In this document: piece by piece, positions 3,001 to 54,012 of the stretch
Layout of the letters: each line of letters opens with the position of its first letter
How positions within the stretch are numbered: the first letter of the stretch is position 1
Assembly (NCBI GenBank): GCA_964016885.1
Contig: OZ024740.1
Span: forward strand, 411,618,001-411,682,000
From: Eledone cirrhosa
Taxonomy: Eukaryota
Direction: 5' to 3'
DNA length: 64,000 bases
The notes under the pieces: generated by a model
What the model was told of the DNA's origin: nothing
The model's database searches: none
The model's input: the letters and a program-made list of their open reading frames with translations, nothing else
Made by a program: the position numbers and the translations under genes

Positions 3001-3372
3001 ATGGAAGAAGTCCGGCCGCATTGACCCGAAAGGGCCGTAGGCGGCTACCAACCTAAACGCTCCGCCTTTACCACTGCCAAGGTCCAGAACCACTAGTCGA
3101 CCCTCCGAGTCCAAATGTACCATCTGTGTTGCGAGACCCAGATGTTTTTGCAGCAGAACGACAACTCCACCCCCACTTCCGGGCTGACAGAGAGATGCGT
3201 GCATCTCAAAGTCATCAAAGGTGGGGGCCAGTTGTCGCACGTTGCTGCTCCGGGCCTCGCAAATAACCATCACATCTATACGTTGTGACCTGAGGTCATT
3301 TAGAAGCATTGCTTGCTTCCAAGTTGAGCCCAGGCCACGCGCATTTAAACAGCCTACTCTTAGCATAGCCAT
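1..3372 (-). pseudogene. L1/Tx1 ORF2 (APE endonuclease + reverse transcriptase), one frameshift near 2135-2150
   Basis: Starts MAMLRVGCLNARGL and has GDWN, YLDRF and GPGYWKLN. My translation of the downstream frame gives KSPGLDG, FRPITLLN, DQSKAFDRVDH, RQGCPLS and YADD (1307-1318), open to position 1. Endonuclease SDH reads SGH. Confidence 0.92.
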
Positions 3373-3396
3373 GTTGGTGGTGAAGAGAAAAGGCAC

Positions 3397-5194
3397 TTAC
3401 CTCTCTGCGTCCCGGGTATCGGGCTGCACAATTTCCATTAGGGTGGGGGATGGGTTGTTGGATGGGGTGTTGGTTTGTGGAAGTTTAGGGGCATCAGTGT
3501 GTTGTGTGGTTGGGGAGCTTCGAGTTGTGTGGGTGTTTGGGGAGGGGGTGGGATAGTTTTTTAGGAGGACGCGGTTAATGGGCCCGACGCAGAGGGGACC
3601 CACGTCCTCTTTAAAATTGTTTTTTAAAGTTTTATAGGTGTCCTGTGGGGCCTTAATCATTTTGAGGTGGGGGAAATCCCCTGCCTGGGTGAAGTTAGGC
3701 CCTTGTGTTTTTATTAGATTGTTGTTGTACACAATGTTTAACAGTTTTTTGTTTCTTGTTTTTATGTATGTGTATGCATGTTTTTGTTTTTGTGTGGTGT
3801 TTTTTGTTTGCTGTTGTTGTGAGCTCTTTTGTGTTGGTGTCAGTGTTATGTTTTGGGGAGGGGTTGTTTTCATTTGTGTGTCTGAGGTGTGTTTTCTTTT
3901 TTTTCTTTTGATTGTGTGGAAGTGCTCCTCCTCGTCTGACAACGAACTAGGGTCATCTTCCGCGTTGGAGGGGAGGGGTATATTTTCGGGTTGTGTTTGC
4001 GGTACGGGTGTTTTGGAAATTGTTTTTGTTTTTTGAGTGGAGGGGATGGGTTGGACATTGTTTTGTTTTGGTTTGAGCTGTGGTGGTTGTTTATGTAGTG
4101 GTAGTTGTGGTGATTGTGTTGGTTGTGCAGTTGTTGGTGGTGTAGGCAGGATTGGGGTTTTCTTATTAAGTTGGGGACAGACAGCCCTCAGGTGACCTCT
4201 GGTTCCGCAGAGGTAACACGAGGGCCGTCTACCCTCAACGGTAATGTTGATGAAGGTTAGATCATCCAGTATGACGCGTTCAGGGATCTGGGCGATCCTT
4301 TCGGGCCTCATTTGAACTACAAGTTCGAGGTTCATTCCACTGAACGCGTCACCCGATGCCTTTCCCATGGACACCAGCATGTCATCCTCCAGGTTCAGAA
4401 AACCTGTCAAAACCCACCATATGTCCATAATCGGCAGGATGGTGTGGATTTTTATTTTTTGTGTTCTTCTACCCATGTACGTAGGGTAGAAGGTGTATGC
4501 GGTGGATGTGATTGGTTTTATGGACAGTTTCACTGCTGTGTCCCTGTCCTTCATGAGAATGGATAGACTCCCGTAGAGTCTATCCTTCTGAATGAAGGTG
4601 ATGTCCTTCATGACGTCTTTTAAAACCAGCTCTATCTCGCTCTGTGATGGTTGAGCTGGTTTTTTACTTTTGTTCGAGATTGTCCTAAACATGACCGTGT
4701 TTAGGAGTCTCTGGCTTTTTAGTTCCGGGGGGGGGGGAATGGATTGTGAATGAACCATTTTCTCCGTACACTATATATTTTTTCGCATCCGCCATTAGCT
4801 CCTTCGCTTTGGTTATATCTACTGGCAGATAGTCGAGGGTTTTCCTTGTCGGCTCGGCGAAGGAGAAATTTTGTTTGTTTGTATTGTTGTTGTCGTTGGT
4901 GGTGTTGTTGTTATCATTGTTGTTGTTGTCACCGTTATTGGTCTTGTTGTTGTTGTTATTGTTATTGTTATTGGTGTTGTTTTCGTCCGTCGCATTGTTG
5001 TTGTTGTTGCTGTTGCTGATGGTTCTTTGGGTTGTTGCCATGGCAACGTCAAGTTGTCGGTTAACAGGTGGAGAGAATTCTTCCTCTGGCTGACCTTTCT
5101 TCTTGACCTCTGCTACTGTGACAGTGGCAGGGGGAAGCTGTAAGTTCATCTTCCCCTTTCCTCCTTCGAATTTTGGTGAAGAAGCTTCGGCCAT
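3397..5194 (-). pseudogene. L1/Tx1 ORF1 (zinc-knuckle nucleic-acid-binding protein), frameshift at G run 4727-4737
   Basis: ORFs 4685..5194 and 3397..4758 overlap at the homopolymer. CYLCGTRGHLRAVC knuckle; Asn-rich N-terminus. Confidence 0.88.
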
Positions 5195-5922
5195 TTAAAA
5201 AAAATATTGACTTTTCAACAAGAAAAAACTTTTTTTTTTGTTTAACTATTTCGCCTAAAGGCGTAGAATATTTTGAGAGACTGACCAGATCAAAGTTTGA
5301 CCTGGCAGTCCCTCTACAAAATGGTACAAAAATTAAAGTTATCAGACAAGAATTTCTATAGAAATTTAAACAGAACTTACTCAGCAAGTCATACGCGTGT
5401 GTCCATCCCAGAGATAGAGATAGATAGATAGATAGACGTAATTTTCTGTGCATATGTTTATGCGAGCAGCATCAGTTGACGTTGTTTGTCGGTGAGACCC
5501 CCCCCCCCCCCAGAGTTAGTACTTTCAAATAAATAAAAAATATTCTCTATCATTCCGCATGGAGTCCACAGGTAATCCCTCTTCCCTCTCCCTCATAAGT
5601 CCTGCGCCCCAACGAACAGTCTGTTGGTACAAAAAGCTACTATGAGGCCAATATCAAATTCATTTAAGCTAACATATGCAGCAGAGCATAAATGAAAACT
5701 TGTGCAATAGCTTAGAAGCCCCAAACGAAAGCTTAGACTGAAAGCAGTATTATATCTAGGTCTTTCCCCAAGTAATTAAATCTATAAGCCAACAACAATA
5801 CTCTAAGTGGTCGACTGAGCTGCTTTCTATAACTATTCAGTCTGCTTCAAACCAAATCACTTTAAATTTAAATAGGAATGGCATACTGTGTAGTTTATTC
5901 GTTACACATTGCCGAAATGACT

Positions 5923-6120
5923 AAACAACAGCAACATCATCAGCATCAACGGTTAATATCATCGTCATCATCATCATCATCTTTCTCATCATAATCACCA
6001 TTATCATAGTCAACATTACTATCATCATCGTCATCATGATGTTCATCATCATCGACATTGTCAACGTATTCGCCGCCGTTGTCGTCGTCATTATCGTTGT
6101 CATTGTCACCGTCGGCGTTA
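5923..6120. repeat. Degenerate (CAT/CGT)n trinucleotide low-complexity tract
   Basis: Directly visible repeats. Confidence 0.85.
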
Positions 6121-6142
6121 TTTTCCTAGTCTTTATAATAAT

Positions 6143-6361
6143 GGTTTCTTATATAGGCACAAGGCCAGCAATACTGGGGGAGGGGAAAGTCGATTAAATC
6201 GACCCCAGTACGTTATTGGTACTTTATTTTATCGACCCCGTAAGGATGAAAGGCAAAGTTAACCTCGGCGGGATTTGAACTCAGACCGTAAATGAACGTA
6301 ACTCTATGCTGTAAAGCATGGTGTCCGACTCCCTACCCATACTGTCAATCCAGCGCCTTAT
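6143..6361 (-). mobile_element. tRNA-derived SINE with target-site duplication
   Basis: Reverse complement of the gttcaaatcccgccgagg...ggggtcgataaaataaagtacc family. TSD tagtctttataataat at 6127-6142 and 6362-6377. Confidence 0.88.
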
Positions 6362-6887
6362 TAGTCTTTATAATAATAAAAAACAAAGCACTGGTTAGAA
6401 ATGATAACTATTCATTGTGTAGCGACAGTGAAGATAAGTTAAAGGTCTTGTTTCTGGATGTCGAATCCTATCAAACAGTATATTTAAATATATAGACAAT
6501 ATAGTGGTATCCAATAACAGCTGGGGGTATGATATTGTAGTTAAACCGGGTGAGAGATTAAACCCATCAATCGCCAAAGAACTTAGACTGGAAGTTGTAA
6601 AAAAAAAATAAAACAAAAGCGGTGCTGTAGAGATTCTACCTGTCACTCACTTTGGACAGGTATTATATTTTATCAAGCCCATATGATGTGAAGAGAATTG
6701 ATATCAGTGGCTGTGAACTCGGAGTGTAATTATTGATGAGAACTACTGCAGCAATTCCAAATATAAAGATCTGGAAACAGAAATATCAAGTATACTGAGA
6801 TGCATAACAAATTTGGTATGGGCATAGACAATGACATAAAAAAAAAGAGAAAGAAATACGAACATGGCGAGGAATATATAATAAGAA

Positions 6888-8350
6888 AAACTGGGCGGAG
6901 GTTACGAACAGGGTGTTTGCACTGACCCAGAAGTGGGCCAGTTGCAAACTATCCCTGAAAGGTCGGGCGGAGGTGGCGAACACCTACATAGCGTCCGTCA
7001 TCTACTACCGCCTGACCGTAGTGCCCTGCCCAAGGGAAACCCTCACCAAGATGGAGCGCGCGCTCTTCCAATTCCTTCGGAAGAGGCGGGCTCCTATGGT
7101 GAGGAGATCCATCTGCTGTCAACACCCTTCGAAAGGAGGGCTGGGGATGCCGTGGCTAATGATGCGTAAACACGCATTAAGGCTACGGCACCTCTACGTA
7201 TTCCTCACCGGACAACCGGTGTGGGCCTCGTTTGTGAGACGAACCTTTCCCAGACTCGTCTCACTCACCGAGCTGCAATCCTGGGTCAAGCAAAGACCGA
7301 GAAAACTGGGCGCCTGGCACACTGAGTGTGCCCAGGCGCTCACCGCCCTCTGGCAGGCGGATCCGGTTATCAGTGGAGACTCCACCGCAACATTCTATAG
7401 AGGGCTGGTACGCAGCAGGTGCGACGACGCCCTCGGAGAAGCCCTAGACATGGAGGAGGACGAACTGGCCAGCCTGTTCGGTAGGACATTCAGCCCGGGA
7501 CCTATGGACAACTTCCAGAAGTCCCTGGCCTGACAGTGCTACCGAGGAGCTTTACCCGTTCGAGAAAGGCTCTACAGACACGGGCGCCCGGGTAGGGACC
7601 CCGCCAAAAAGATCTGTCCCAGATGCGTGTGCGACGAGGAAACCGTTGCACACGCATTGGTACACTGCTCGGGCGTAGCCGATCTGTGGGGCTATGTCGA
7701 ACAACTGCTGTCAAGGGTGGGACCGATCCGGTTGACCATCGAGTCTATTGTAATGATCAAGCCGCCTCCCCCCTTCAAAGATGAAGCAGAGGCGGTGTTT
7801 CTGTGCGTAATAGCCATGGCGAAAGAGGTTGTATGGTGGACGCGTCTGAAAGGACTGAGGTCAGGCACCTTTCTCTCTGGCCAACAACTGGTCCGTTTCT
7901 TCCGATATCATTTCGGAAGAAGGATCAGGATGGAGAGAGAGGTGCTGCACCCCAGTCGTTTTTATGAAAGGTGGGTGAAAGTGGCGAGAATGGCCCGTGT
8001 GAATGGGCCTTCTCTTTACATGAGCCTGTAGGTGGAAAAGAGGAAGGAACGAGGGAGCACCCCCTCTCTGTGCTCCTGAGGAAAAGGGTTGCACACTTTT
8101 TTCGGGGGTGTGTGCGACCCCCCAAGGCGCCTCCTCTCTATTGAGGATTTTGTTATAAATTTTATTTTTTGTTATATTTTATAACAAAATCCTCTATTGA
8201 GGATTTTGTTATAATTCTATTTTTTGTTATATTTTATTTTATTTTTATATATTGTTATTGCCTCCTCCCTATTGAGGACGCCTTGTTTTGTAAACTCCCC
8301 CCATTGTACTTGTCCCACTTTTGATGCCCTTGTGGCAAATAAAAGAAACA
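6888..8350 (+). mobile_element. 5'-truncated L1/Tx1 copy (family a): ORF2 C-terminus and 3' UTR
   Basis: Close match to the reverse complement of 1-1084. In-frame TGA at 7531-7533, ORF2 stop at 8031, 3' end cccttgtggcaaataaaagaaac. Confidence 0.93.
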
Positions 8351-13034: not shown

Positions 13035-13110
<76 letters not shown>

Positions 13111-13117
<7 letters not shown>

Positions 13118-13581
13118 GAATGAATAATAACAAGTAGACATCATAAAAGGTAATTTATTCCGTGTGCTTACAAATGTTTCCACGGTGGTACTACAGCCTA
13201 GTTATGCTATGTGCAAATTTACAAATATTTGCAGAACTAAAAAATCCAATGCTGTGACCACTGTATCCTCATTCTGCTCTGAGGATACAGTGGTCACAGC
13301 ATTGGATATTTGAGTTCTGCAAATACTTGTAAATTTGCACATAGCATAACTAGGCTGTAGTACCACCGTGGAAACATTTGTAAGCACACGGAATAAATTA
13401 CCTTTTATGATGTCTACCTGTTATTATTCATTCTTTATATACACTCTGGAATACAGAAGGATCAGGAACTAAGTTTCTTCAACAATTCTTCCATAACTCG
13501 TAGAGTAACCTCTCACCGTACGTCAACCATATCCAGTGTAGTAATTAACCATTACTACATCTTGGATAATCCTATACCTAA
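13111..13581 (+). mobile_element. (TA)n-flanked fold-back insert carrying a hammerhead ribozyme
   Basis: Arms about 13115-13271 and 13280-13438 with an 8-nt loop, plus a ~140 bp tail. Confidence 0.85.
13275..13386 (+). ncRNA. Type I hammerhead ribozyme (minimal stem III, long stem II insertion)
   Basis: tgct-CTGAGGA-tacagtggt...accaccgtg-GAA-AC attt GT-A-agca. Stems I, II and III pair; GUA cleavage triplet. Confidence 0.8.
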
Positions 13582-13636
13582 TATATATATATATATATAT
13601 ATATATAAGTGGTTACACAACAGTTAGTTCTCCATA

Positions 13637-13676
13637 CCGAGAACAATTGTTTCACCTTCGCGGATCTTCAGCTCGG
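13637..13676 (-). ncRNA. Minimal type I hammerhead ribozyme in a ~100 bp (TA)n-flanked insert (13608-13707)
   Basis: ccgag-CTGAAGA-tccgcgaaggt-GAA-ACAATTGT-T-ctcgg: 5-bp stem I and palindromic stem III. Confidence 0.8.
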
Positions 13677-13815
13677 GATGTGTATGGTTACAGGAACAGG
13701 AAGGACATATATATATATTTATATATATGTATGAATGTGGAATTCAGTAGATACGTGATTCTACTGTTCAATGTATAAATGTATGTAAGTTTTTTGAAAT
13801 GTTGGATCTCACTCA

Positions 13816-13858
<43 letters not shown>

Positions 13859-14114
13859 CCACGATAAATTAACGGAGACATAGGCCGTCGTTATACCCTG
13901 TAAATAATGTGCTCAAAGGGGAAGAGATCCTGAGCCCTTTAAAATATAATATGTTGAGAAGGTAACACACCAGAGAGAGATATATAGTGCGCTATCAATA
14001 ATACAGGGAAAAAACCACCAGTGTATGGAATCTATAACCTATGAAAGGCAGACTATAGACACGATAATTAAAAATATAAATTAAAGCGTAAATAAATACC
14101 TCTATAACTATATA

Positions 14115-14196
14115 ACACACGTACAAATCCAAAGATATGTTTCACCAAAAAAATTTGTTGAAAGAAATGGTCTAGTCTCGGTTCATCAGCGTGTGT
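14115..14196 (-). ncRNA. Type I hammerhead ribozyme, repeat copy 1
   Basis: acacacg-CTGATGA-accgaga...ttttggt-GAA-acatatc tttg gatttgt-A-cgtgtgt. Canonical core, three paired stems, GUA site between 14122 and 14121. Confidence 0.88.
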
Positions 14197-14656
14197 AAGG
14201 CCATACATTTCAGACAACACTAAGAGAATTTTACAATTGACTGTCCAGCTATACGTGGGAGAGAGAAGTCACAGCGTGTTTAAGGGCAGTGAACCAGTGG
14301 CCTCTGAGAGACGAACTGCTAGAAAGGGCAGCCCAAAGCCACTCAGAGAAGTGTGCTCAACCAAACAGAGATAGGAAAGACTCTTATTAGGAGCGAAATA
14401 TCACGATAAATTAACGGAGGCATAGGCCGTCGTTATTCCCTGTAAATAATGTGCTCAAAGGGGAAGAGATCCTGAGCCCTTTAAAATATAATATGTTGAG
14501 AAGGTAACACACCAGAGAGAGATATATAGTGCGCTATCAATAATACAGGGAAAAAACCACCAGTGTATGGAATCTATAACCTATGAAAGGCAGACTATAG
14601 ACACGATAATTAAAAATATAAATTAAAGCGTAAATAAATACCTCTATAACTATATA

Positions 14657-14738
14657 ACACACGTACAAATCCAAAGATATGTTTCACCAAAAAAATTTGT
14701 TGAAAGAAATGGTCTAGTCTCGGTTCATCAGCGTGTGT
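14657..14738 (-). ncRNA. Type I hammerhead ribozyme, repeat copy 2
   Basis: Same motif as 14115-14196, offset by 542 bp. Confidence 0.88.
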
Positions 14739-15321
14739 AAGGCCATACATTTCAGACAACACTAAGAGAATTTTACAATTGACTGTCCAGCTACACGTGG
14801 GAGAGAGAAGTCACAGCGTCTTTAAGGGCAGTGAACCAGTGGCCTCTGAGAGACGAACTGCTAGAAAGAGCAGCCCAAAGCCACTCAGAGAAGTGTGCTC
14901 AACCAAACAGAGATAGGAAAGACTCTTATTAGGAGCGAAATATCACGATAAATTAACGGAGGCATAGGCCGTCGTTATTCCCTGTAAATAATGTGCTCAA
15001 AGGGGAAGAGATCCTGAGCCCTTTAAAATATAATATGTTGAGAAGGTAACACACCAGAGAGAGATATATAGTGCGCTATCAATAATACAGGGAAAAAACC
15101 ACCAGTGTATGGAATCTATAACCTATGAAAGGCAGACTATAGACACGATAATTAAAAATATAAATTAAAGCGTAAATAAATACCTCTATAACTATATAAC
15201 ACACGTACAAATCCAAAGATATGTTTCACCAAAAAAAATTTGTTGAAAGAAATGGTCTAGTCTCGGTTCATCATATCTTTGGATTTGTACGTGTGTTATA
15301 TAGTTATAGAGGTATTTATTT

Positions 15322-16639
15322 ACTACACTTATAGATGAAGGTCCGGCGGAACCATCGGTCAAATAAATTTTCAAATAAGTTCTTGTTTTTGATTATGTCA
15401 TCTTCTATATATATAAAACTGAGGTTGTCTGTCTGTCTACTAAAACCTTCGGCACACATCTCCTCTTAAACCGTACGTTCAAATTTCGGTGAAATTGCTA
15501 CACTTATAGATGAAGGTCCGGCGGAACCATCGGTCAAATAAATTTTCAAATAACTTCTTGTTTTTGATTATGTCATCTATATATATAAAACTGAGGTTGT
15601 CTGTCTGTCTACTAAAACCTTCGGCACACATCTCCTCTTAAACCGTACGTTCAAATTTCGGTGAAATTGCTACACTTAAAGATGAAGGTCCGGCGGAACC
15701 ATCGGTCAAATAAATTTTCAAATAAGTTCTTGTTTTTGATTATGTCACCCATATATATAAAACTGTGGTTGTCTGTCTGTCTATCGATTTTTGGCACACA
15801 TCTCCTCTTAGAATCTCTGATGGAATTGCACCGAAATTGCTATACTTATACATTGAGCCCTAGCGAAGACATCGGAAAAAAAATATTTCAAATTGACCCA
15901 CCCTATGTGACGAAATCGAATATAATGTATCGATTTTTGAGCGTAAGTTATCAGTTATTTCCCTTTGTTCTGTTTACATTGAGCGTCTTACGTAAAAAAT
16001 TACGCTGGCTTTCTCAGTGCTTAAAATGACATTAACGTTGTCGAGCCAGCAAAATATTGACATGCAAAATTCATCAGTTCGAACACTAAGCTTCCGTTTT
16101 GCTTCATTTCCATTTAAAAGCATTTTAAAACAATATTTTTACTTGAAAACAAGTCTATTTAAAGACTACGTAAAACAAGCAAATATTTCGTCGTTAGGCG
16201 TGCAGACAGACAGTCGTGCAGACAGACAGTCGTGCAGACAGACAGTCGTGCAGACAGACAGTCGTGCAGAGAGGTGATATAGGCGTGCAGACAGACAGTC
16301 GTGCAGAGAGGTGATATAGGCGTGCAGACAGACATAACTGATAATTTGGTTACGCTAATGTTTTTCTCTGCGTTGCAGTGTTTACATTTTCGATCTTTGT
16401 TAATAAATAACCAGTGCAGTTTCTATCCCCAGCATCCTCTTTTGTTATAACATTCGGGTTATCGTTATGTTTTCTTAACTTCATAAGGCATATTGTTGGT
16501 TGAGGGAATATTAATCAAAAACACCACATGCAAGTCTGCACAGTAGACACTACAGTTTTTAAGCCAAGAAAGAAACTTAACATTGTAACTTTAACACAGC
16601 TACTGAGAGACCCCGAGCAACGCCGGGCTTTACTGCTAG
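15322..16639 (+). mobile_element. Non-autonomous Helitron with reiterated 172-bp 5' units (copy 1)
   Basis: TCTATATATATAAAA starts at 15404 and 15576, body from about 15748, 16-bp cgtgcagacagacagt minisatellite, 3' hairpin and CTAG ending at 16639. Confidence 0.85.
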
Positions 16640-18159
16640 TCTATATATATAAAATTGAGGTTGTCTGTCTGTCTACTAAAACCTTCGGCACACATCTCCT
16701 CTTAAACCGTACGTTCAAATTTCGGTGAAATTGCTACACTTATAGATGAAGGTCCGGCGGAAGCATCGGTCAATTAAATTTTCAAATAACTTCTTCTTTT
16801 TGATTATGTCATCTATATATATAAAACTGAGGTTGTCTGTCTGTCTACTAAAACCTTCGGCACACATCTCCTCTTAAACCGTACGTTCAAATTTCGGTGA
16901 AATTGCTACACTTATAGATGAAGGTCCGGCGGAACCATCGGTCAAATAAATTTTCAAATAACTTCTTGTTTTTGATTATGTCATCTATATATATAAAACT
17001 GAGGTTGTCTGTCTGTCTACTAAAACCTTCGGCACACATCTCCTCTTAAACCGTACGTTCAAATTTCGGTGTAATTGCTACACTTATAGATGAAGGTCCG
17101 GCGGAACCATCGGTCAAATAAATTTTCAAATAACTTCTTCTTTTTGATTATGTCATCTATATATATAAAACTGAGGTTGTCTGTCTGACTACTAAAATCT
17201 TCGGCACACATCTCCTCTTAAACCGTACGTTCAATTTTCGGTGAAATTGCTACACTTATAGATGAAGGTCCGGCGGAACCATCGGTCAATTACATTTTCA
17301 AATAACTTCTTCTTTTTGATTATGTCATCTATATATATAAAACTGAGGTTGTCTGTCTGTCTACTAAAACCTTCGGCACACATCTCCTCTTAAACCGTAC
17401 GTTCAAATTTCGGTGAAATTGCTACACTTATAGATGAAGGTCCGGCGGAACCATCGGTCAAATAAATTTTCAAATAACTTCTTGTTTTTGATTATGTCAT
17501 CTATATATATAAAGCTGTGGTTGTCTGTCTGTCTATCGATATTTGGCACACATCTCCTCATAGAATCTCTGACGGAATTGCACCGAAATTGCTGTACTTG
17601 TACATTGAGCCCTAGCGAAGACATCGGAAAAAAAAAATTTCAAATTGACCCACCCTATGTGACGAAATCGAATCTAATGTATCGATTTTTGAGCGTAAGT
17701 GACGAGTTATTTCCCTTTGTTCTGTTTACATTGAGCGTCTTACGTTCTGTTTACATTTTCTGCGTGAAAAAATAAAAAAAATTACGCTGGCTTTCTCAGC
17801 GTTTAAAATGACATTAACACAATACACGAACAGTTGTCGAGCCAGCAAAATGTTGACCTGCAAAATTCATCAGTTCGAACACTAAGCTTCCGTTTTGCTT
17901 CATTTCCATTTAAAAGCCTTTTAAAACAATATTTTTACTTGAAAACAAGTCTATTTAAAGACTACGTAAAAGAAGCAAATATTTCGTAAAAAAAAGCAAA
18001 AATTATATAAGTTTATTTAAAATATATGTATCTGTAAATTTCGTTAGGCGTGCAGACAGACAGTCGTGCAGACAGACTTTAAGCCAAAAAAGAAACTTAA
18101 CATTGTAACTTTAACACAGCTACTGAGCGACCCCGAGCAACGCCGGGCTTTACTGCTAG
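16640..18159 (+). mobile_element. Non-autonomous Helitron with five 172-bp 5' units (copy 2), head-to-tail with copy 1
   Basis: Unit starts at 16640, 16812, 16984, 17156 and 17328; body from 17500; hairpin and CTAG ending at 18159. Confidence 0.85.
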
Positions 18160-19372: not shown

Positions 19373-19620
19373 TTTCTTTATTAACCACAAGGGTTTACAT
19401 AAAGTAGACATTAAGGACAGTGCAGGACAATACAGGACGGTACAAATGGGCATTTCTGCGTGTAAAAAACAAAAACAGAGGATGTAACAAAAAATAACAA
19501 TGAAAAATTCCCCAATAGGGGGGAGACTTCGGAGGGACATTTGTGGAGAAAGCCCAGTAAAAAGCCACAATGACCCTGACCACCAAGGCAAGTGCCCTCT
19601 CCCAGTTTTCCACCTTTAAT

Positions 19621-22600
19621 TTACAGATATATACTCAGAGTAGGCCCATTCACTCGGGCCATTCTTGCTTCTCTCACCCATCTTTCAACAAAATGCTGGG
19701 AAGAGAGCACTTCCCTCTCTACTCTGATTTTCCTTTTCAAATGAAATTTGAAAAAGTCAATCAGAGCATCACCGAAGAGGTAAGTGCTCGTCTTCAGCCC
19801 TTTCAAACGTGTCCACCATACTATCTCTTTCGCCATGGCCACCAGACAGATAAAAACTGCCTGCCCTTCCCGGCTAAAGGAGGAGGGCAGGGCAATCCTC
19901 ACGATGGACTCAGATGATAGCCGGATCCGTCCTAAACGCGACAGCAGGTGTTCGACATAAACCCACAAGTCAGCAATTTTCGGACACTGGACGAGTGCGT
20001 GCAGGATGGTTTCGTCGCCCTGCGCGCATCTCGGACATGCCCGGTTGACGGCACCTCCATGCCTGTAGAGTTTATCCCGAACTGGCAAGGCTCCTCGGTA
20101 GCACTGCCAGGCCAGAGATTTCTGGAAGTTGTCCATAGGCCCTGGCCCGAAAGTTCTTCCGAAGAGATTGGCTAGTTGATTTTCGTCGACGCCTAGAGTT
20201 CCCCCAAGTACGTCGTCGATCTTCCCCTCCACTAATCCTCTATAGAACGCCGAGGTGGAGTTTCCACCGATCACATTGCCCGATTGGTCGAGGGCTGTGA
20301 GCGCCTGAAGACATTCCAGTCTCCAGGCGCTCCCTCTCGGTCTTCGCTTGACCCAGGACTGCAGCTCCGTCAAGGAAACGAGCTGGAGAAATACGCGTCT
20401 AGCAAACGGCGACCACACCTGATCACCGTCGAGGAAGAGGTGGAGATGTCGTAGCCTGAGCGCGTGCCTGCGCATCATCAGCCACGGCATGCCCAGCCCT
20501 CCACGTAGCGGATGTTGACAACAGATGGACCGCCTGACCATCGGAGCGCGTCCCTTCCACAAAAAGCGAAAGAGCAAACGCTCCAGCGCAGTCAGGCGAG
20601 GCTTAGGACAAGGTACGACGGTCAGGCGGTAGCAGATGACAGACGCGATGTACGCATTAGCCACCTCCGCTCGACCTTTCAGGGATAGCTTCCTCTCCGC
20701 CCATTTCTGGGTGAGAGAAGCCACCCTGCTCGTCACCTCGTCCCAGTTTTTGTCCGTCTGGAGGTCCGAACAGAACCAGACCCCTAGCAATTTAACCGGT
20801 CCGTCCGTCCAGCGTCCGACGACGCTGTTGGACGGCATGGACCTGCCTCTCCAGGTGCCGAGCTGCAGGCCCACTGACTTTTCCTGGTTGATCATTGCTC
20901 CTGTCAACGCTTCGTATTCACTTAGTGTAGTGCCGATCGCCTCGATGTGTTTGGCGTTCGACACCACTACGGTGACATCGTCCGCATATGCTGACACGGA
21001 TCTTCCGCATCCTAGTTCGCGCGGGACGCCCCTCAACGTCTCCAGTTTGTGCAGTAATGGCTCGAGAGTCAATACGTACAAGAGGGACGAGAGGGGACAT
21101 CCTTGGCGGACCAAGCGCATGATGTTGAACGGTTCCGACAGGTGGCCGTTCACTCTCACCACAGAGCAGATGTCGCTGTGCATGGCAGCGATCCAGCCTC
21201 TGAAGACGGGCCCAAAGCCAGCCGCCCCCAGGACTGCCGCTAGGTAACGATGGTCGACCCTATCGAAAGCTTTCGACTGATCTAAATTGATCAAGGAACC
21301 ACCCGTGCCAGGTTCCTTAGCTACTCTCTCTACGATGTATCGCATGAGGTGGAGGTTGTCGTGGATGGATCTGTCGGGAATGGCGCATGTCTGCGCTTCT
21401 CCCACCAGACCACCAACGACAAGCCCAACCTCTTTGCTAGCACCTTGGCCAAAATCTTGAACTCTGTGTTTAGCAGAGTAATGGGCCGGAAATTATCTAT
21501 GTTATCCCCCTTGTTCGGATCCTTTCTCAGCAGTGCCACCGCTCCTCGGCTCACAGAACTGGGAATTCTCCCGTTCTGTTGCCAGTTGCAGTAGACGTCC
21601 GCCAAGAGGCCTCCGAACAAGTCTGGGATCTGTACGTAAAGTTCATAGGGCATACCATCCAAACCAGGCGATTTTCCCCTTGTGCAGCCAGTCATTGCCT
21701 CCCTTACTTCAGTGGCTGTTATCCGCTTTTCGCAACACTTCGCCTCAATTGGCCGAGGGCCGCGGCAGTCCGTCAAGGTAGACACTAAAGTCCATCCCTC
21801 GACCCGGCCCACCGCTGCCCCCGAACAGCTGAGCGAAGTGTCGCTGAAAAGCTTCACACATTTGCCCGGGATCGAATAGCATGCGCCCGTCGTGGTCCAC
21901 CAAACACCGGATCGTGGCTTTGTGGCCACGACGCGCCTCCGCCACTCGGGCTCATTGAACGGGTTTCGTCCCCTCGTGTCTGAGAGCACGCACCCTTGCT
22001 CTGACAACGCAGCCTTCGTGCTTTGCATTGAAGAATTGGTCAAGGGCCAATTTCGCCGCAAGCACGTCGGTCGCAATGCCTTTGCTAAGCACCTCGTCTA
22101 ATTTTCTAACTAGTTCTCCCTCTGCTCTATTTTTCTCTATTGCTAAAGCCTTACTAAACCTAATGGATTCTATTCTAATCGCTCTTTTCAGACCATCCAC
22201 CACTTGTTGTTGACGATGGCCCCCGTCAACGCCCGCTTAACTAGTTCGCTAATCCGGTCTCTGTAGGCCTTGCGCGCTGGTCAGGACGCGTTTAGCTTCC
22301 AGTAGCCGGGTCCTCGTCTATGAAGCCTATCTAAGTCAAGCACACAGATTACGAATTTGTGGTCCGTGTAGCTGACTATCTTGAATTGTGGACAGCCTAT
22401 GCTAGACCTATCTATTTCCCTACAAAATACTCTATCTAGATATGATCTGGATGACCCTATGCGATTTGTCCAAGTCCACATTGGCACATTCGGGAAATCC
22501 AATCGGTACCTGTCAGACAGTTCAAAACGCCTGAGCAGGTTGGTGAGGCTCTTGCACCCTCCACCCCTATCCGCTAATCCCACACAGTCCCAGCGTGCAT

Positions 22601-23039
22601 CTAAGATCCCGTTCCAGTCGCCCACTAACACAAAAGAGCGGGACGTTCCAAGAAAGGTCTCCAGACGCCGGAAGAAATGAGGCCGCCCTGCTCCTGTTGG
22701 GGCATAGACGGCCACTATCCTGAAATCTTGCCCGTCTCCGCTGGTCACGTCCAGCACCACCAGCTTACCCTCTGGGTCCAGGAAGATGGCCCGTATGGCG
22801 AGATCCAAACCTCTCCGAAAAAGCACAGCAACTCCGCTCCCCGATCCAGGACGGCTGGGAGATGCGTACACATCGTAGCCGCCGAAGATCGGTGCGAAGG
22901 CCCGTGCTTCGGAGATTCTGGCCTCGCTGATGGCCACTACATCTATGTTTAGTGACCTGAGGTCGTTGAGCAGGTGACCCTGCTTCCATGACGACCCCAT
23001 GCCACGCGCATTTATGCTGCCTATTCTGAGTGAGGTCAT
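19621..23039 (-). pseudogene. L1/Tx1 ORF2 with stop and frameshifts
   Basis: MTSLRIGSINARG, GDWN, YTDH, KSPGLDG, QGCPLS, YADD and CPRC..H..C are split over ORFs 22281..23039, 21952..22203, 21745..21945, 21330..22076 and 19621..21405. Confidence 0.92.
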
Positions 23040-23118
23040 GTTTAAAATAGAGTGGAAAAGATGAGAAAGACCACTTACCGTACTTTTCGTAGAGGAGGGA
23101 TGGTTTTTACATCCCTTT

Positions 23119-25215
23119 TCACTTGATCGTCTGGTGAAGGGACGTTGAATCGTCCCTTCGGCTGGTCGTCGGCTCTTCTATGAGAATGTCTGAATATACT
23201 CTTCGATTGATAGTTCCTCCTAGCTCCCTGAAATCACCAACTGCGTTGGGGAATTTCGTTTTAATGTTTGTGTATTGCGTCTGTGCTATTTTTAGCAGTC
23301 TTATGTTAGTTGGCGTTTTGATTGGTCCTGGCATTATGTAGTCGTATTGTGAAATGTCTGTGTGTTCAATTCCGTAAGTCATTAGTTTCTTGTTGTGTGT
23401 ATTTATTGCCGTGCATTTGTTTTTCTGGGGGTGGGGTGTGGTTCTGCTATTTTCTTGTCGTTGTTGCTGGGTGTGTGTGTTTTGTTGTTGTGTTTGCGAT
23501 GTTGGTGCTTGTGGTGGTGGTGTTGAAGGTGTTGTTGGTGGTGGGGTTGTCGCCGGTGGTGATGGTGGTGCTAGTGTGGGTGGTGATGGTGTTGGTGGTG
23601 TTGCTGCTGTGGGTCTCTTTGCAGTAGACTTTACCCTTTTCTCATTTCTTTCCTCCCTTTTCAAAGGCGACGATGCGCTGCTTCTGCGTTTGTGCCTTCT
23701 TACGACCTTTTGCCATCCCTCTCCCACCTCACACTCCATGTCTGATTCTGTGAGGTCGGGGAGGGGTACCAGCTCCACTCTTTCACTTGTTGTTGTTGGT
23801 GATGTTTGCACTGGAGTCTCTGTTGCAGCTGCATTTGGTATTGCTGTTGTTGTTGTTAATATTTCCACTGCTGCTGCTGTTTTTGATTTCCGTGGCGTGG
23901 GTATGGGTGCCACGGACCTATCGTTCCTGGTTGCCGCTTGTCCTCTTGCTGGTAGCCGTGGAGCCGGTTTCGGAAGGAGGGGGGTTTTCTCCTTTCTCAG
24001 GGTCTTCTCGTTGCAGAAGGCCCTGAGGTGAGTCTTCGATCCACAGCGAAAGCATTTCGGGCGTTTTCCCTCAAAACTTATGGGCAGTTGAGTGCCGTTA
24101 TCGAAGTCTATCACATCCGAGATAGCTTCGATGCACTCCTGGTTGGTTTGGATTAGCATCTCAATGGAGGTGCCGACCCAATCTTCTCTTACTTTTTTTT
24201 GTACTTGTAGTACAGTTGTTTTGTCCTCGATTCCGACGAGGACAGACGCGGCCAGCCAAGAAGGGGCCATCCCGGGGGGGGGGGGGGGGGTCAGTTTGAC
24301 CCTCACAATTTTTTGCCCGCAGTAGGAGGGCACAAACACCATTTCCTCGCTCCTTAGGGTCACTACGGATCGGGCCTTTGCCTCCTGGGGTGTGGCAAAA
24401 AGTACGTCTACGGTGGCATATTTTTTGCCTCGGGTTATGTGCGTATTCCGCTGCCACACAGACCCCAAGGCTTTTCGTATTTGAGCCTCTGTGGCTCTTT
24501 CCACCCTACGGGATTTTGTACTTGCTGTATGGTACGTGACCGTACAGTGCTGTTGGGTTTCGAAAATTTTTTCTGCTGCCTTGCAGATTGCTCGGTGTCC
24601 AGTCTTTGTCACCATCTTCTTCGCTTCCTCTAATTCCTCATTTGTTATGAGGATTGTTTCCAAGTTTTTCGCAATACCTGCAAATGAGATTGGTTTTTCT
24701 TTGCTGTTGTTGTTGTTGTCGTCAGAGCTGCTGTTACTTTTGTTGTTGCTGCAGGTACTACGACTACTACCTCCGCCGCTGTTGCTGTGGTTGTTGTTGG
24801 TGTTGCTGCTGCTAATGCTGTTGTTGTTTATGCTGCTGGTGATGCTGTTGCGGCTGCTACTTTTGTTTTCATTGTCACTATTGCTGTTGTTATTACGGCT
24901 GCTACTGCTATTATTCCTGACGTCAGACGAATGAACTGGGTTTTCGTATTTCCCGCACACCTCTTTCGTCGCTGTCGTCGTCGTCGTGGAGAAATCTTGC
25001 ACGCTTTGCACGAGACTTTTCTTTTCTTTCGTCGCTTGCGAAAGAGAAGGGAGGGAGAGAGACACATTTATATAAGGGAGGGAGAGAGACAATCTTCTCT
25101 CTGCTGTAGTGATGATTGAGGAAGAAGAAGACGGAATGAGTGGGAGTGACCTATGAAATTTCTTTTTCGTAGCCATGTTGTTTTTTTTTTTGTTTAAAAT
25201 AAATATTGGGTACAA
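23119..25215 (-). CDS. L1/Tx1 ORF1 protein (zinc knuckle)
   Basis: 698-aa open frame with CFRCGSKTHLRAFC and Ser/Asn- and Pro/Thr-rich linkers. True start is probably the internal MATKKK. Confidence 0.85.
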   Translation of the reverse strand: MYPIFILNKKKNNMATKKKFHRSLPLIPSSSSSIITTAERRLSLSLPYINVSLSLPSLSQATKEKKSLVQSVQDFSTTTTTATKEVCGKYENPVHSSDVRNNSSSSRNNNSNSDNENKSSSRNSITSSINNNSISSSNTNNNHSNSGGGSSRSTCSNNKSNSSSDDNNNNSKEKPISFAGIAKNLETILITNEELEEAKKMVTKTGHRAICKAAEKIFETQQHCTVTYHTASTKSRRVERATEAQIRKALGSVWQRNTHITRGKKYATVDVLFATPQEAKARSVVTLRSEEMVFVPSYCGQKIVRVKLTPPPPPGMAPSWLAASVLVGIEDKTTVLQVQKKVREDWVGTSIEMLIQTNQECIEAISDVIDFDNGTQLPISFEGKRPKCFRCGSKTHLRAFCNEKTLRKEKTPLLPKPAPRLPARGQAATRNDRSVAPIPTPRKSKTAAAVEILTTTTAIPNAAATETPVQTSPTTTSERVELVPLPDLTESDMECEVGEGWQKVVRRHKRRSSASSPLKREERNEKRVKSTAKRPTAATPPTPSPPTLAPPSPPATTPPPTTPSTPPPQAPTSQTQQQNTHTQQQRQENSRTTPHPQKNKCTAINTHNKKLMTYGIEHTDISQYDYIMPGPIKTPTNIRLLKIAQTQYTNIKTKFPNAVGDFRELGGTINRRVYSDILIEEPTTSRRDDSTSLHQTIK

Positions 25216-25395
25216 AACGCCAATAAGCAGTTATTTAACCCGGAAGGGCCAAATAACGGGCAGAAAGACCCCTCTCACGAGGAGGAGGGTGTTTTTGTCT
25301 ACAAGTTCGTTAAAGTTTTAAACAATTTACAATTGTTATAGTGTTCAAAATTTACAATACCTTACAGAGCCGAGCCTCCGTCAACCATAGCATTC

Positions 25396-25427
<32 letters not shown>

Positions 25428-25428
<1 letters not shown>

Positions 25429-27878
25429 CAGAAGATGCTGTTTGTACAGCTTGCGGGGAAAGAAAGAGGCAACGACTTGATCCCTGAGGCGGAACAAACT
25501 AAAACATTCTGGAGAGGAATATGGGAGCAGGATGTTAGACATAATGACCAGGCAGGGTGTATTGAGACAGTATATAGGGAGATCGGTGAGCAGGCACACC
25601 AACAAACTGATTTGAGTATCACAGTTGAAACTCTTAAGGGGCAGGCCAAAAAACTAAGCAACTGGAGATCACCAGGCCCAGATGGTGTGCTGTGGTATTG
25701 GATTAAAAATGTAACATCCCTCCACCCGAAGCTGACAACCATGTTCAATGACTGCTTGATGTCAGGTGAGGTACCAGAGTGGTTGACAAAAGGTACCACA
25801 GTTCTGATAATGAAAGACCGAATCAAGGGTAATGATGTTACCAACTATAGACCTATCACATGTCTGTCCGTAATGTGGAAACTGTTGACGAGTATTGTGT
25901 CTGAGGAAATCTACCATCACCTCCCCACAAACAACTTGTTACCGGACGAACAGAAAGGATGCCGAAAGAAGTCACGTGGTACAAAGGACCAGTTACTTAT
26001 TGATAAGATGGTAATGGGGAATTGCAGGAAGAGACACACTGATCTTGCCATGGGATGGATAGACTACAGAAAGGCATTTGACATGGTGCCTCATTATTGG
26101 ATCACCAACAGCCTGGAGATCTTCAAGGTGGCAGATAACATCAGACAGTTGCTGGGCAGGAGTATGAGGTCCTGGGAAACAGAGTTGACATCAACTGGAG
26201 AATCCTTGGGAAGCGTGAAGATCAAGAGAGGTATCTTCCAGGGAGATAGCCTGTCCCCTCGGTTCTTTGTCCTTGCCCTGATGCCCCTGACCATTATGCT
26301 GCGAAAAGTGAGAGCAGGATACAAGTTGGGAAAGGGAGAGCTTACCATCAATCACCTCCTCTTCATGGACGATCATATGCTCTTCGGGAAGAGTGAGAAG
26401 GAGTTGGATGTGCTTGTTGACACTGTCCGTATTTTCAGCAGTGATATATGTATGCAGTTTTGTATTAGTAAGTGTGGAGTCATTGTGATGAGGAGGGGTA
26501 GGTTGAGCAGAAGTAACGGAATCCAGATACCAACAGGTGAGATGATAAAGGAAATTGACTCTGAGGAAGGAAACAAGTATTTGGGCGTTCTGGAGGCTGA
26601 TGGCATAAAGAACAAAAAAAATAAAGGAATTGTTAAGAACTGAATACATTCGGAGAGTAAGGAGCGTATTGAAGTCACATCTGAACAGCAGAAATGCCAT
26701 AAGCGCAGTAAATTCCCGAGCTGTGTCTATTATTAGGTACAGTGCGGGAATTCTGAGATGGAATGTTACTGAACAAAAAGAAATGGATAGGAAGACTAGG
26801 AAGCTTGACTATCTACAACATGTTCCACAAGAGGAGTGATGTCGATAGACTCTACCTAAGGAGATCTGAGGGTGGAAGAGGTCTTATCAGCATAGAGGAC
26901 TGTGTTCAGATGGAGAAAAGCAACCTACACAAATACGTGGCTGATAGTAAGGAGCCAATGCTCAGAACTGTACTGAAGGAGGGGACAATAGGCCAGGGGA
27001 TGTCCAAGGAGGAAATAACATCAAGGAGAATGAGCAGCCTTCAGCGAAAATCCCTTCATAGTACCTTCTTTGAGAAAACTGAATTTAGAGATCCACAGAC
27101 ATGGAACTGGTTGAACAAAGGAGACCTTAAAAAGGCTACAGAAGGAATGCTAATGGCTGCGCAAGAGCAGGCCCTCAAAACGAAGTGGCTGAAACACCAT
27201 ATTTACAAGGAGGAGGCTAGCCCACTGTGTAGGATCTGTTGAGAGAGAGAGAGGAGACTGTGGCTCACATTGTATCCGAGTGTCAACACCAAGCCCAGAC
27301 TCACTATAAAGGCTGGAGACATAATGTGATGGGCAGGGTGATCCACTGGCACCTATGCAAAGTAAACAATTTACCACATTCTGAGAAGTGGTATGAGCAT
27401 AAACCAGAGTCGGTGATAGAAAACGATCAGGTGAAGGTGCTGTGGGATTTTAGGATACAGACGGACAAGAAACTGGAACACAATAGACCTGACCTGATGG
27501 CTTTGGACAAGGAGAAAAGATCGTGCCTGATTGTGGATGTGGCCTGCCCATTCGACACGAGAGTGCAAGAGAAGGAGAGGGAGAAAATTAACCGATACCA
27601 GGACTTAAAGTGGGAGGTAAAAAGGATTTGGAACTCCCATGAAGTCAATGTGGTCCCGATTGTCATAGGCGCACTAGGTACTATCTCAAAGAGTTTCCAC
27701 GGATGGTTAAAGAAAGTTGGCCCCGCCCCGCTTTTTGGAACACTTCAAAAGGCATGCTTGCTGGGAACAGCAAGAACCCTCCGATACGTCCTGAATATCT
27801 GAGGCTGCAGGTAGTGGCTTGATATTCATATTCAACAAACTTTCCAGTTAACTAACATCAATGACTGAGACTCAAAGA
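25428..27878 (+). mobile_element. 5'-truncated R4/Dong-clade LINE (RT + CCHC + restriction-like endonuclease), disrupted
   Basis: SPGPDG, YRPITCL, DYRKAFD, GIFQGDSLSP, FMDD, then CRIC..H..C, RHN, RPD..D..EK..Y and VIGALG. (AAT)n on both sides. Confidence 0.92.
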
Positions 27879-27908
27879 ATAATAATAATAATAATAATAA
27901 AAATAATG

Positions 27909-34332: not shown

Positions 34333-34490
34333 ATATATATATATATATTAGAAAGTGAGGTTTTTTTTACAAAATGAAAAATAACCGACGTGTCCTACAC
34401 GAGTGGAAGTATAAAGAAAAAGGGATGAAATCGAAAATGCAACTGAAGTCTTATTTTTTTTTTTTTTTAAATAAATATATTTATTTGGTT

Positions 34491-34528
34491 CCTTTACCGG
34501 TTTCGCAGTTCTTCTGCTTTTCAAAAGG
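34491..34528 (-). ncRNA. Minimal type I hammerhead, U3-A8 core variant (mirror copy)
   Basis: Reverse complement of 34599-34636. Confidence 0.72.
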
Positions 34529-34598
34529 TGAGTTGAGATGGAGGGTCTGTGGTTTTTCTCACATGTGAGAAAAACCACAGACCCTCCATCTCAACTCA

Positions 34599-34636
34599 CC
34601 TTTTGAAAAGCAGAAGAACTGCGAAACCGGTAAAGG
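34599..34636 (+). ncRNA. Minimal type I hammerhead, U3-A8 core variant
   Basis: cctt-TTGAAAA-gcag aagaa ctgc-GAA-ACCGGT-A-aagg. Confidence 0.72.
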
Positions 34637-34705
34637 AACCAAATAAATATATATATTTTTAAAAAAAATAAGACTTCAGTTGCATTTTCGATTTCATCCC
34701 TTTTT

Positions 34706-34772
<67 letters not shown>

Positions 34773-34800
34773 GGGGTGGGGTGGGGTGGGGTGGGGGTGC

Positions 34801-36757
34801 GTAGATTGTACCGGGATGATGCGCTACTCACCCTCAAAGGGTACAACCCCAGTAGTACAGACCGGGTCCGTAAACAACTAATCAACTTCTTCCGGGACTG
34901 GGGATTTAAAATCACCCTACAAACGTCCCTAATCCGGGTCAATTTCCTGGACGTTACCCTTAACCTCGAAAATTATCTGTACTACCCATACAGGAAAACA
35001 AACGACAACCTGCACTACATCCACCGCCGCTCTAACCATTCTAGAATCATCACCAATAACCTGGTTAAAAACATCTCCCTCCGCATATCTCGTTTGTCCG
35101 CTAATGAGCAGATATTCGACGACCACGCGCCTCATTACAACCAGGCCCTCAAGCGGAGTGGCTTCCGTAGGAAATATCCTTTTATCCAGCTTCCCTTAGC
35201 GGATCCAGCAGGCGACACCGCCGCTCACGCAATGTAACGTGGTTCAATCCTCCCCATAATGACGAGGTGACAACACCTATCGGGAAAATCTTCTTTAAAC
35301 TCCTCGAAAAACACTTCCCACTACAACACCGCTACCAAAACATAATCAATAAAAACACCATTAAACTCTCCTACAGCACCACACCTAACTTCGCACAAAA
35401 CATCGACTCCTCAAACAACAAAAAACTCAATCCCTATGGAAGAAATAACTTAGACATCAGTTGAGAGCCGACCAGGAGGTGTAACTGCCCTGATAGATCT
35501 ACGTGACCCCTCAACAACAAATGCGGAGAAAATAACGTGATCTACCAGTGCAACGTGAGGACGGACACCTCCAGCAAAGCTTATATAGGATTAACCGCGT
35601 GTGACTTCAAGACCCGGCTCTACCAACACCGGATTACTTTCCGCAACCCGGTCCGGCGACATGCATGCCACTACACTTTCGGGCCACATCTGGGACCTCC
35701 AAGATAGTAATATAACCTACAATCTCACTTGGAGCTTACTGTCCAAAGCTAACTCTTACACGGGAGGACGCCGTCCGTGTAACTTATACTCGGAGGAAAC
35801 ATTACAAATGCTGTTTTCGAAGGACCAACTGCTAAACAAGAAAGACGAACTGGTAACGCATGCAAACACAGATTGCGTAGGACTTAACTCGCCCTCAAAC
35901 CCCATAACGACCCGGGTGGGTAGGCAAGGACTGATACCCCCCTCCACTTGCCGAATAAATTAGGGAAAACCCCAGCTTACATAGGTAGATGTATCTATTT
36001 TATTTTCCTCTTTGTCTTCTTCTTCCCCCTGTCTCATCCTATCACTTCCTTCCACCCTCTATTTTCTTCCTCGTCTGCTTTTCTCCTTTCGCCTACTCCG
36101 ATGCAGCCCATCGGGCCTCTGTAGCATCAGTTCCCCCACCTCTGTAATTTTAAGATAGAATTGGCCGAATACGTTTTACTAACTACTTATAACAGATGTG
36201 TTAAAACCCCTTTAATTTTGTATCAGTTTTGTTACTACTCATTCTACAAGTTTTTTCTATTCTCAACTTCTTAACCTGTAATTGTAAGATAGCATTGTGA
36301 TTTTTTTTATTCATTTCTCACTATCTAATTTTATATATTTTTTTTATTTCTTTCTATTATCTGTTATTGTCTCCTACTCTCATTCGATTTACCTATTCTA
36401 TAACCTCCCTCCTCCACTTCATACACTATCCTTAGAATCTGCTGTATACATATCACCTTCAACGCTTGACCGCTCCACTCACTCCCCTATTGATAGACTT
36501 ATTTGTGTTTACAACAAATTTCAACCAATCCTCTTGACAACTACAATCTTCCTATATAAGGAAGTACCCCCTTGACAAGTTCGGCTATTTATTCACCAGG
36601 CTAAAAATTCTAATTTAGTCCAGAAATATTCGTCGTAACGGCTTGAGCTCTGCCGTCGGTGTCATACCTTTTCCTATTTCCCACTCTATTACCCTAAGTA
36701 TTGAGTACTCTGGTGCGTTATGGTCGATCTGCTTCCTTACCACAATTCCTTTGTTAT
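34801..36757 (+). mobile_element. 5'-truncated Penelope-like element (probably Naiad-type), RT C-terminus + GIY-YIG, decayed, with 3' HHR-bearing terminal repeat
   Basis: LYRDD, VNFLDVT, YIHRRSNH, WFNPP, KHFP, KLSYS, CNC..xPL..KC..NVIY..YIG across frameshifts. HHR-like motif at 36566-36660; ends at (TA)n. Confidence 0.9.
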
Positions 36758-38939: not shown

Positions 38940-38984
38940 CTGATTGAGCCAGCAGTTTGTTGTAAGTATTTGGTTTCTTTCATC
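38940..38984 (-). CDS. Nicotinic acetylcholine receptor subunit, 45-bp exon (exon 3 equivalent)
   Basis: ttttctctttcag|GATGAAAGAAACCAAATACTTACAACAAACTGCTGGCTCAATCAG|gtaaat encodes DERNQILTTNCWLNQ, phase 0/0, in frame with 53870-54012. Confidence 0.93.
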
Positions 38985-53869: not shown

Positions 53870-54012
53870 AACATCGATAATTTGAGCTAATGCCACACCA
53901 AACGTGACATTTATTGCTTCTGATGAGTTGAAAGATGGTCGAACCCTTTTATCGTAGTTCTTTAGAAGTCTGTTAACCAAAGAAAGTTCCACATCATCAG
54001 CGGACGAAGAAG
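53870..54012 (-). CDS. Nicotinic acetylcholine receptor subunit, 143-bp exon (exon 2 equivalent)
   Basis: Polypyrimidine tract and ttgcag acceptor, gtaagt donor. Encodes SSSADDVELSLVNRLLKNYDKRVRPSFNSSEAINVTFGVALAQIIDV, ending at the conserved nAChR DV|DE exon boundary. Confidence 0.93.

Follow-up and report, generated by a model that had tools for sequence, protein, structure and literature searches.

A young, dispersed 542-bp hammerhead repeat family of Eledone cirrhosa, likely a retrozyme, with the insertion anatomy of Penelope-like elements

Introduction

An intron of a nicotinic acetylcholine receptor (nAChR) gene of Eledone cirrhosa contains a tandem repeat, each complete unit of which has a hammerhead ribozyme motif. 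Is it a local array, the end of a coding element, or one copy of a noncoding replicon, and if the last, which enzyme copies it and from which template? The repeat is found in a 64,000-nt stretch of contig OZ024740.1 (assembly GCA_964016885.1, positions 411,618,001 to 411,682,000, forward strand), which we call the window and number from its first letter.

Animal non-LTR retrozymes have been defined as a class, with circular RNAs in coral, mussel and axolotl, and Penelope-like elements (PLEs) were named, as a proposal, as their likely driver (PMC7229834). A 2026 preprint by Li, Clavereau and Pollet (10.64898/2026.07.22.740005) argues that vertebrate retrozymes are non-autonomous PLE derivatives that arose from PLE terminal repeats, and reports cleavage for one of nine dimer elements. 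The accessible text of these two sources leaves unsettled which enzyme moves animal retrozymes and whether circles serve as template. The chemistry of the proposed driver is better described: a PLE protein cuts AT-rich DNA and extends both strands, with two internal RNA start sites defining a tail (Frangieh 2024, PMC11167929), and PLE insertions have inverted arms and, on one side, a tail that measures 30-40 bp (Craig 2021, PMC8557442).

The window copy is a 2.6-unit array with an inverted stump

The array is noncoding and runs head to tail from 13856 to 15273 with a period of 542, for a total of 2.62 units (Table 1). We number the unit from 14403 on the plus strand and use unit 2 as the reference. 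Units 1 and 2 differ at five of 542 sites (99% identical), the GC content of the unit is 38.9%, and translating two joined copies of it in all six frames gave no long ORF. These results bear out the first-pass annotation of this DNA, which had reported about 2.6 near-identical noncoding units; its account of the array was right about the tandem units but overlooked the inverted piece at the end. The window copy is an arm of 2.6 units that begins at fixed end A, plus the stump of a second arm. The other fixed end of the family, site B, lies at 13944 and recurs at 14486 and 15028. An Rfam search of the window returned nothing at the gathering threshold.

Table 1. Features of the window, in window coordinates.
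Feature	Position	Strand
(TA)n target microsatellite, with (CT)n ahead of it	13833..13858	.
Fixed end A, the RNA-sense 3' end; putative reverse-transcription start, unit position 538/1	13856..13861	-
Unit 1, 542 bp, noncoding, 39% GC	13861..14402	-
Tail from end A to end B, 88-89 nt including shared AT letters	13861..13944	-
Hammerhead 1, complete type I; predicted cut 14122/14121	14115..14196	-
Unit 2 (reference)	14403..14944	-
Hammerhead 2, complete type I; predicted cut 14664/14663	14657..14738	-
Partial unit 3, positions 1-328	14945..15273	-
5'-truncated third hammerhead within unit 3	15199..15273	-
Inverted piece, unit positions 279 to 228; second-arm stump that stops short of site B	15272..15323	+
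Two tandem non-autonomous Helitron-like elements with internal 172-bp repeats; separate from the retrozyme	15323..18159	+
Decayed copy of Hydra-clade PLE group H; ends at its own site A on (TA)n	34800..36757	+
nAChR alpha-subunit exon, 45 nt, DERNQILTTNCWLNQ; the repeat sits in the intron after it	38940..38984	-
nAChR exon matching the start of the ligand-binding domain (PF02931; profile match 53840-53983)	53870..54012	-

The inverted piece is joined to the first of two tandem elements, which is 5'-truncated and which, like the second, we take to be Helitron-like from their end motifs (a TC start, a hairpin and CTAG). An element of this type also adjoins a retrozyme arm at another locus (L055).

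Could the array be a local satellite expansion or an assembly artefact? Consistent with an artefact, no individual read or contig (among contigs and RAD reads) covers the entire window array. However, contigs from two other runs (X2 and X6) bridge the unit-to-unit junction, the two complete units are distinguished by their five differences, and dispersed loci on many contigs share the same fixed ends. A satellite forms long local arrays that end in arbitrary phase; here the ends are fixed, and of 2,939 candidates the 40 scored include no array above 4.35 units, a length reached by two. We regard a satellite or artefact as very improbable.

The unit belongs to a dispersed family with two fixed ends

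A search with the unit returned 2,657 candidates, of which 40 were scored, and full-unit matches were 97-100% identical. Similarly, a 24-mer from the unit has 798 exact matches across the 3.0-Gb genome, versus none for the control. The 542-bp repeat is one copy of a young, dispersed, noncoding family present at hundreds of loci. No LTR layout was seen among the family insertions that we read.

We assessed insertion anatomy in 76 regions, drawn from the first 100 matches to the 24-mer on one contig (C1), which yielded 82 insertions and 126 arms. Two fixed sites, A and B, separated by about 88 nt, account for the arm starts: of 74 A arms, 66 begin exactly at unit position 538, and of 52 B arms, 49 begin within 80-84. 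TA-rich sequence flanks 118 of the 126 arm starts (70 of 74 for A, 48 of 52 for B). The insertions comprised 47 with A and B arms in inverted orientation, 25 with A alone, one with B alone, none with A+A or B+B, and nine others; the sample was selected by a motif beside end A, and B-only and B+B insertions are therefore undercounted. Copies of the family thus show an inverted, 5'-truncated arm and a partial tandem, as do PLE-mobilised elements. In non-LTR retrozymes the target-site duplication, when present, is longer than 4 bp; because the flanks of this family are (TA)n, such a duplication is unreadable here. Among 42 simple junctions, the two arm ends of an insertion coincide modulo 542 in nine, against a permutation mean of 4.1 (p 0.01), which fits either local hairpin annealing or fold-back.

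The same ends recur beyond the main family. Divergent loci picked by their hammerhead end mostly at A or B, among the matches listed. In addition, a sister family found via its tail has a 532-bp unit about 72% identical to the reference (530 candidates; 25 loci, L146-L170, e.g. L149:969-1613); it retains both ends, stem I and the hammerhead core, and many of its copies carry A.C at pair 10.1-11.1. In one sister copy (L151), stem II is shortened.

This anatomy matches that of the anole Poseidon element PAc and other PLEs in its two internal starts, tail, inverted 5'-truncated arm, partial tandems and AT-rich or (TA)n targets; as in PLEs, the hammerhead lies upstream of the start sites. Unlike PLEs, the family has no ORF, its tail measures 88-89 nt rather than 30-40, the whole element repeats, and a full type I hammerhead takes the place of the minimal motif. 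The two fixed ends and A+B pairing tie the family to PLE chemistry, and insertion ends are not analysed in the accessible text of PMC7229834 or of the preprint. We consider it highly probable that PLEs mobilise the 542-bp family. The first-pass annotation had treated a retrozyme and a Penelope repeat as alternatives; here the two coincide, as a retrozyme inserted with PLE anatomy.

Other insertions in the window resemble these in outline. At 13110-13441, a 162-bp perfect inverted repeat lies within (TA)n and carries a hammerhead-like CUGAGGA...GAAA...GUA motif at 13275-13386 on the plus strand; it is probably an inverted insertion of another PLE-type family. By eye, we also noted a compact hammerhead motif at about 13635-13690 on the minus strand, whose stem I spans 5 bp and whose stem II has a U.U at its base; the motif adjoins another (TA)n run and recurs in L167. 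A further inverted-repeat insertion in (TA)n occupies 34349-34690, directly upstream of the decayed H copy, and its end sequence recurs beside L065 and L196.

Each complete unit carries a hammerhead motif whose active fold is disfavored in folding models

Both complete units contain a complete type I hammerhead on the minus strand, with predicted cut sites exactly where the first-pass annotation had placed them. Each consists of a 7-bp stem I, CUGAUGA, a 7-bp stem II with three G-U pairs, GAAA, a long stem III and GUA. The cuts are 542 nt apart and fall at unit position 262/261. The third hammerhead ends at 15273 and lacks C3 and the 5' strand of stem I. A loose-rule scan of the whole window gave four candidates: the two complete motifs, one in the nearby hairpin insertion and one that is chance-like. 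Genome-wide, the hammerhead pattern matched 358 times, versus none for the reversed control, indicating that the motif is not a chance occurrence. The long stem III would in principle allow the ribozyme to work as a monomer.

The core had been called canonical. The CUGAUGA, GAAA and GUA elements and the stems are indeed present, but pair 10.1-11.1 is A-U, and stem II is poorly conserved beyond 3-4 bp. A G10.1-C11.1 pair is listed as highly conserved in hammerheads (Cervera 2014, PMC4209133). In an alignment of 18 relatives, pair 10.1-11.1 is A-U or unpaired (unpaired in seven), stem II is paired at 71%, no double compensatory change was found, and covariation did not exceed that of shuffles. 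Most of these relatives were found with a fixed core pattern, which 11 of the 18 rows match, and their core conservation is thus not evidence. Within the family, core sites mutate at the same rate as other non-polymorphic sites (1.2% vs 1.2%).

Folding predictions gave a similar picture. In the minimum-energy fold stem I forms and the core is mispaired; the active core lies 2.4 kcal/mol above the minimum and takes a 0.25% share of the ensemble, in local, linear and circular contexts under a model without tertiary terms. The circular unit folds better than shuffles (z -3.35, 40 shuffles), and local folds of the hammerhead and tail do not (z -0.6 to -1.2). From these models, and by analogy with the anole element, the activity of the predicted ribozyme may be low or protein-assisted.

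The family is likely a retrozyme rather than the end of a coding PLE

Are these copies truncated terminal repeats of a coding PLE that our searches missed, and hence no independent noncoding replicon? Their anatomy is exactly that of PLE ends, and the search for linked ORFs used protein queries from two PLE groups; about 120 main-family regions among several hundred loci were read. In 98 main-family regions the protein queries found one direct fusion, to a Neptune-like PLE that we call N1 (L024), and four separate neighbors. However, that sole fusion partner has no similarity to the unit. Moreover, long arms wrap from position 542 to position 1 rather than exiting into an ORF, the flanks at arm junctions are unrelated sequence or common repeats, and the 20 divergent hammerhead loci and 25 sister loci share the same noncoding type of unit, 530-545 bp long. 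We also considered whether L031-L033, with matches 3.8-3.9 kb apart, represent repeats flanking an ORF; these are separate insertions and gave no match to the PLE queries. We consider a remnant of a coding PLE improbable. The genome search proposed in the first-pass annotation thus shows that tandem copies exist, with no related ORF in the 98 main-family and 20 divergent regions.

With a unit that closes on itself, arrays of several units and loci free of a related ORF, the repeat is of the non-LTR-retrozyme type that had been suggested for it. Like animal non-LTR retrozymes, it forms tandem, noncoding, low-GC (<50%) units, at least two of them in succession bearing a single type I hammerhead; its copies are dispersed as monomers to oligomers in a genome that also contains PLEs, the driver proposed by both retrozyme sources. 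At 542 bp, the unit exceeds the 150-450 bp given in PMC7229834 and lies within the 51-972 bp of the preprint. The family differs from those retrozymes in its long stem III and A-U pair 10.1-11.1. Whereas the preprint derives retrozymes from PLE terminal repeats, the unit described here is unlike the two coding PLE families that we checked. A further parallel is offered by non-autonomous Chlamys elements such as MRC1, which are noncoding, often multicopy head to tail, and have PLE-type ends; over the 3' end, however, elements of that type are as a rule similar to an autonomous partner, and Naiad and Chlamys are described as lacking canonical hammerheads (PMC8557442). Taken together, the sequence features make the 542-bp family a likely retrozyme, an addition to the known class of animal non-LTR retrozymes. 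We found no report of a cephalopod retrozyme in a literature search that covered mainly the main texts of openly available papers.

Arms read through the predicted cut and share one haplotype per insertion

If cleaved linear monomers were the main template, arms should stop at the cut. We found that 57 of 126 arms cross the predicted cut, eight of them twice or more. Only two arms stop at positions 255-268, compared with about 3.2 expected from the mean rate; the stops cluster instead at 26-50 and 101-175. Since arms run through the cut without a pile-up, cleaved linear monomers are not the main template, and we rejected this possibility.

Each insertion carries one haplotype. Discordant sites number 25 of 840 between tandem units and 31 of 683 between arms, versus 33% between loci. 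Minor-allele discordance is likewise 9% and 16% for tandem units and 17% and 22% for arms, versus 83% and 77% between loci of the same subfamily. We then read all of the 21 top-scoring arrays: eight carry a variant that is present in every covered unit and absent from the other sampled regions (a further array, L172, was not counted, as its second arm lacks the variant). Across 116 regions, no pair has three or more rare variants in common, except the duplicated pair L174 and L179. These two long arrays on C4 are copies of one another, including a common flank, lie 0.8 Mb apart in inverted orientation, and represent a segmental or an assembly duplicate. With six multi-insertion or duplicate regions left out, 13 private variants are found in all copies of their insertion (three of them resting on at least three copies), nine are partly shared and 212 are single. 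Seven of 43 arrays show at least two inherited differences between units, and L080 has an ABBA pattern. The mosaic arrays and partly shared variants indicate that local duplication, conversion or mixed templates also occur.

Shared haplotypes, the absence of a long master array among the 40 scored and private variants present in all units favor copying around a unit-length circle. From these sequence patterns we hold it somewhat more probable than otherwise that this young insertion was copied in trans, by a PLE enzyme, from unit-length circular RNA. In such a cycle, a multi-unit copy would first be read into minus-strand RNA, for the window copy as part of the nAChR pre-mRNA. A pair of hammerheads would excise the 542-nt monomer, and a host ligase would join its ends. 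The PLE RT-endonuclease would then cut both strands of a (TA)n target and prime one cDNA on each, at A and at B, as the anole PLE does in vitro. How far each cDNA rolls would vary, in the longest cases exceeding four turns, and the pair would join head to head.

The alternative that we take most seriously is PLE-driven insertion from uncleaved, linear read-through RNA of multi-unit genomic copies, with array length kept up by local duplication or conversion and a ribozyme that cuts rarely or just trims transcripts. The absence of a pile-up at the cut fits this possibility equally well, and the disfavored active fold, the seven mosaic arrays and the nine partly shared private variants speak for it. 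So does precedent: the anole PLE acts mainly on RNA that has not been cleaved, and in vitro it does not need the cleavage step (Frangieh 2024, PMC11167929). Linear copying, however, can only maintain or shorten arrays, yet no long master appeared among the 40 scored. Nor did the 116 regions contain a parent-child pair, with the proviso that parents could be missing from a single assembly. In addition, eight of the 21 top-scoring arrays have an all-unit variant unseen in other sampled regions, and differences between units are mostly the 212 singletons. We therefore cautiously favor the circle as template on this sequence record, and give uncleaved multimers a lesser but substantial chance.

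Intact Hydra-clade PLEs are a candidate driver

If PLEs mobilise the family, which one does so? The window itself contains a decayed copy of a Hydra-clade group, H, and short H ends near 36645, 49407 and 63609. Genome-wide, the H-type reverse transcriptase has 34,406 candidates, and nine of 12 fetched regions (L221-L232) contain intact H ORFs of 717-723 aa that are 98-99% identical. The L221 protein has a C-terminal GIY-YIG domain, DKT, a CxCX5C linker and RWR in place of RWK, motifs by which we assign it to the Hydra clade (PMC8557442); a Pfam search of the H protein gave no match. H insertions, too, end on (TA)n and do so at either of two sites, which are separated by 81 nt; among 108 clusters at loci fetched for other reasons we found 18 A+B insertions, one A+A and no B+B.

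The 542-bp family thus resembles H and other Hydra-clade PLEs in its (TA)n targeting, A+B inverted insertions, long tail (88-89 nt vs 81 nt in H) and recent activity. Unlike the unit, H encodes a protein of roughly 720 aa with reverse transcriptase and GIY-YIG domains. Although hammerheads are reported for the Hydra clade, a simple pattern search found no canonical one in the H 3' region. Neither H nor N1 has significant similarity to the unit, and the link to H thus rests on anatomy. One sister-family insertion (L158) is fused directly to an H arm; the only direct fusion of the main family to a coding PLE is to N1 (L024), not H. By this analogy of anatomy, the intact family H is the best candidate, and we judge the chances that it is the driver to be evenly balanced.

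The L024 fusion led us to consider N1 as a partner. This Neptune-like PLE has 5,181 candidates, including a near-full copy in L143. Matches that run through its end show one end only in 23 of 24 cases (the remaining match is the reference copy), and an inverted piece was present at one of 28 loci. N1 likewise targets (TA)n. Given its lack of similarity to the unit, its one-ended insertions and that single inverted piece, it ranks below H as a less probable driver. As seen at L143:600-5900 on the minus strand and L133, N1 is young and ends on (TA)n; its hammerhead is minimal, and its 3' region is long and C-rich.

The main value of this family is a family-wide record of PLE-type insertion together with a candidate intact driver. 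Hundreds of young copies record the insertion chemistry: two starts, A+B pairing, passage through the cut and one haplotype. Combined with an intact young PLE of the same anatomy, this record makes the questions of driver and template testable with the published in vitro PLE assay. The most complete scenario is that a Hydra-clade PLE recognises shape and site spacing and copies a ribozyme-closed 542-nt circle by double-primed rolling-circle synthesis, sustaining a persistent noncoding replicon; the subfamilies of this noncoding lineage span 72-100% identity. As a whole we consider this scenario speculative and rather unlikely. If true, it would provide a named retrozyme-plus-driver pair with intact enzyme copies, and the proposed retrozyme life cycle could be rebuilt in vitro.

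The repeat lies in the sense orientation of an nAChR intron

The first-pass annotation had placed the hammerheads on the sense strand of an nAChR gene, possibly within an intron. The exons agree with this: two lie on the minus strand within the window (Table 1), a PF02931 profile search located two more before the window, and the next exon is about 1.7 kb before it. A later exon carries the Cys-loop and the vicinal cysteines of an alpha subunit. With exons on either side, the repeat sits inside an intron of about 40 kb and its ribozymes are on the sense strand. Since the family is dispersed in microsatellites, this position is probably incidental. Nonetheless, two predicted sense-strand cut sites in a receptor intron let one ask, in a natural setting, whether ribozymes of this kind are tolerated or kept inactive.

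Two further observations concern this setting. Within the same intron, several decayed LINE copies with endonuclease and reverse transcriptase ORFs occupy 1-8000 and 19600-33000 of the window. Elsewhere in the assembly (G000), 23.6-23.9 Mb of C11 (L109, L111 and L112) contains dense Cys-loop receptor matches in open frames of about 380-430 aa, a pattern that fits intronless receptor genes.
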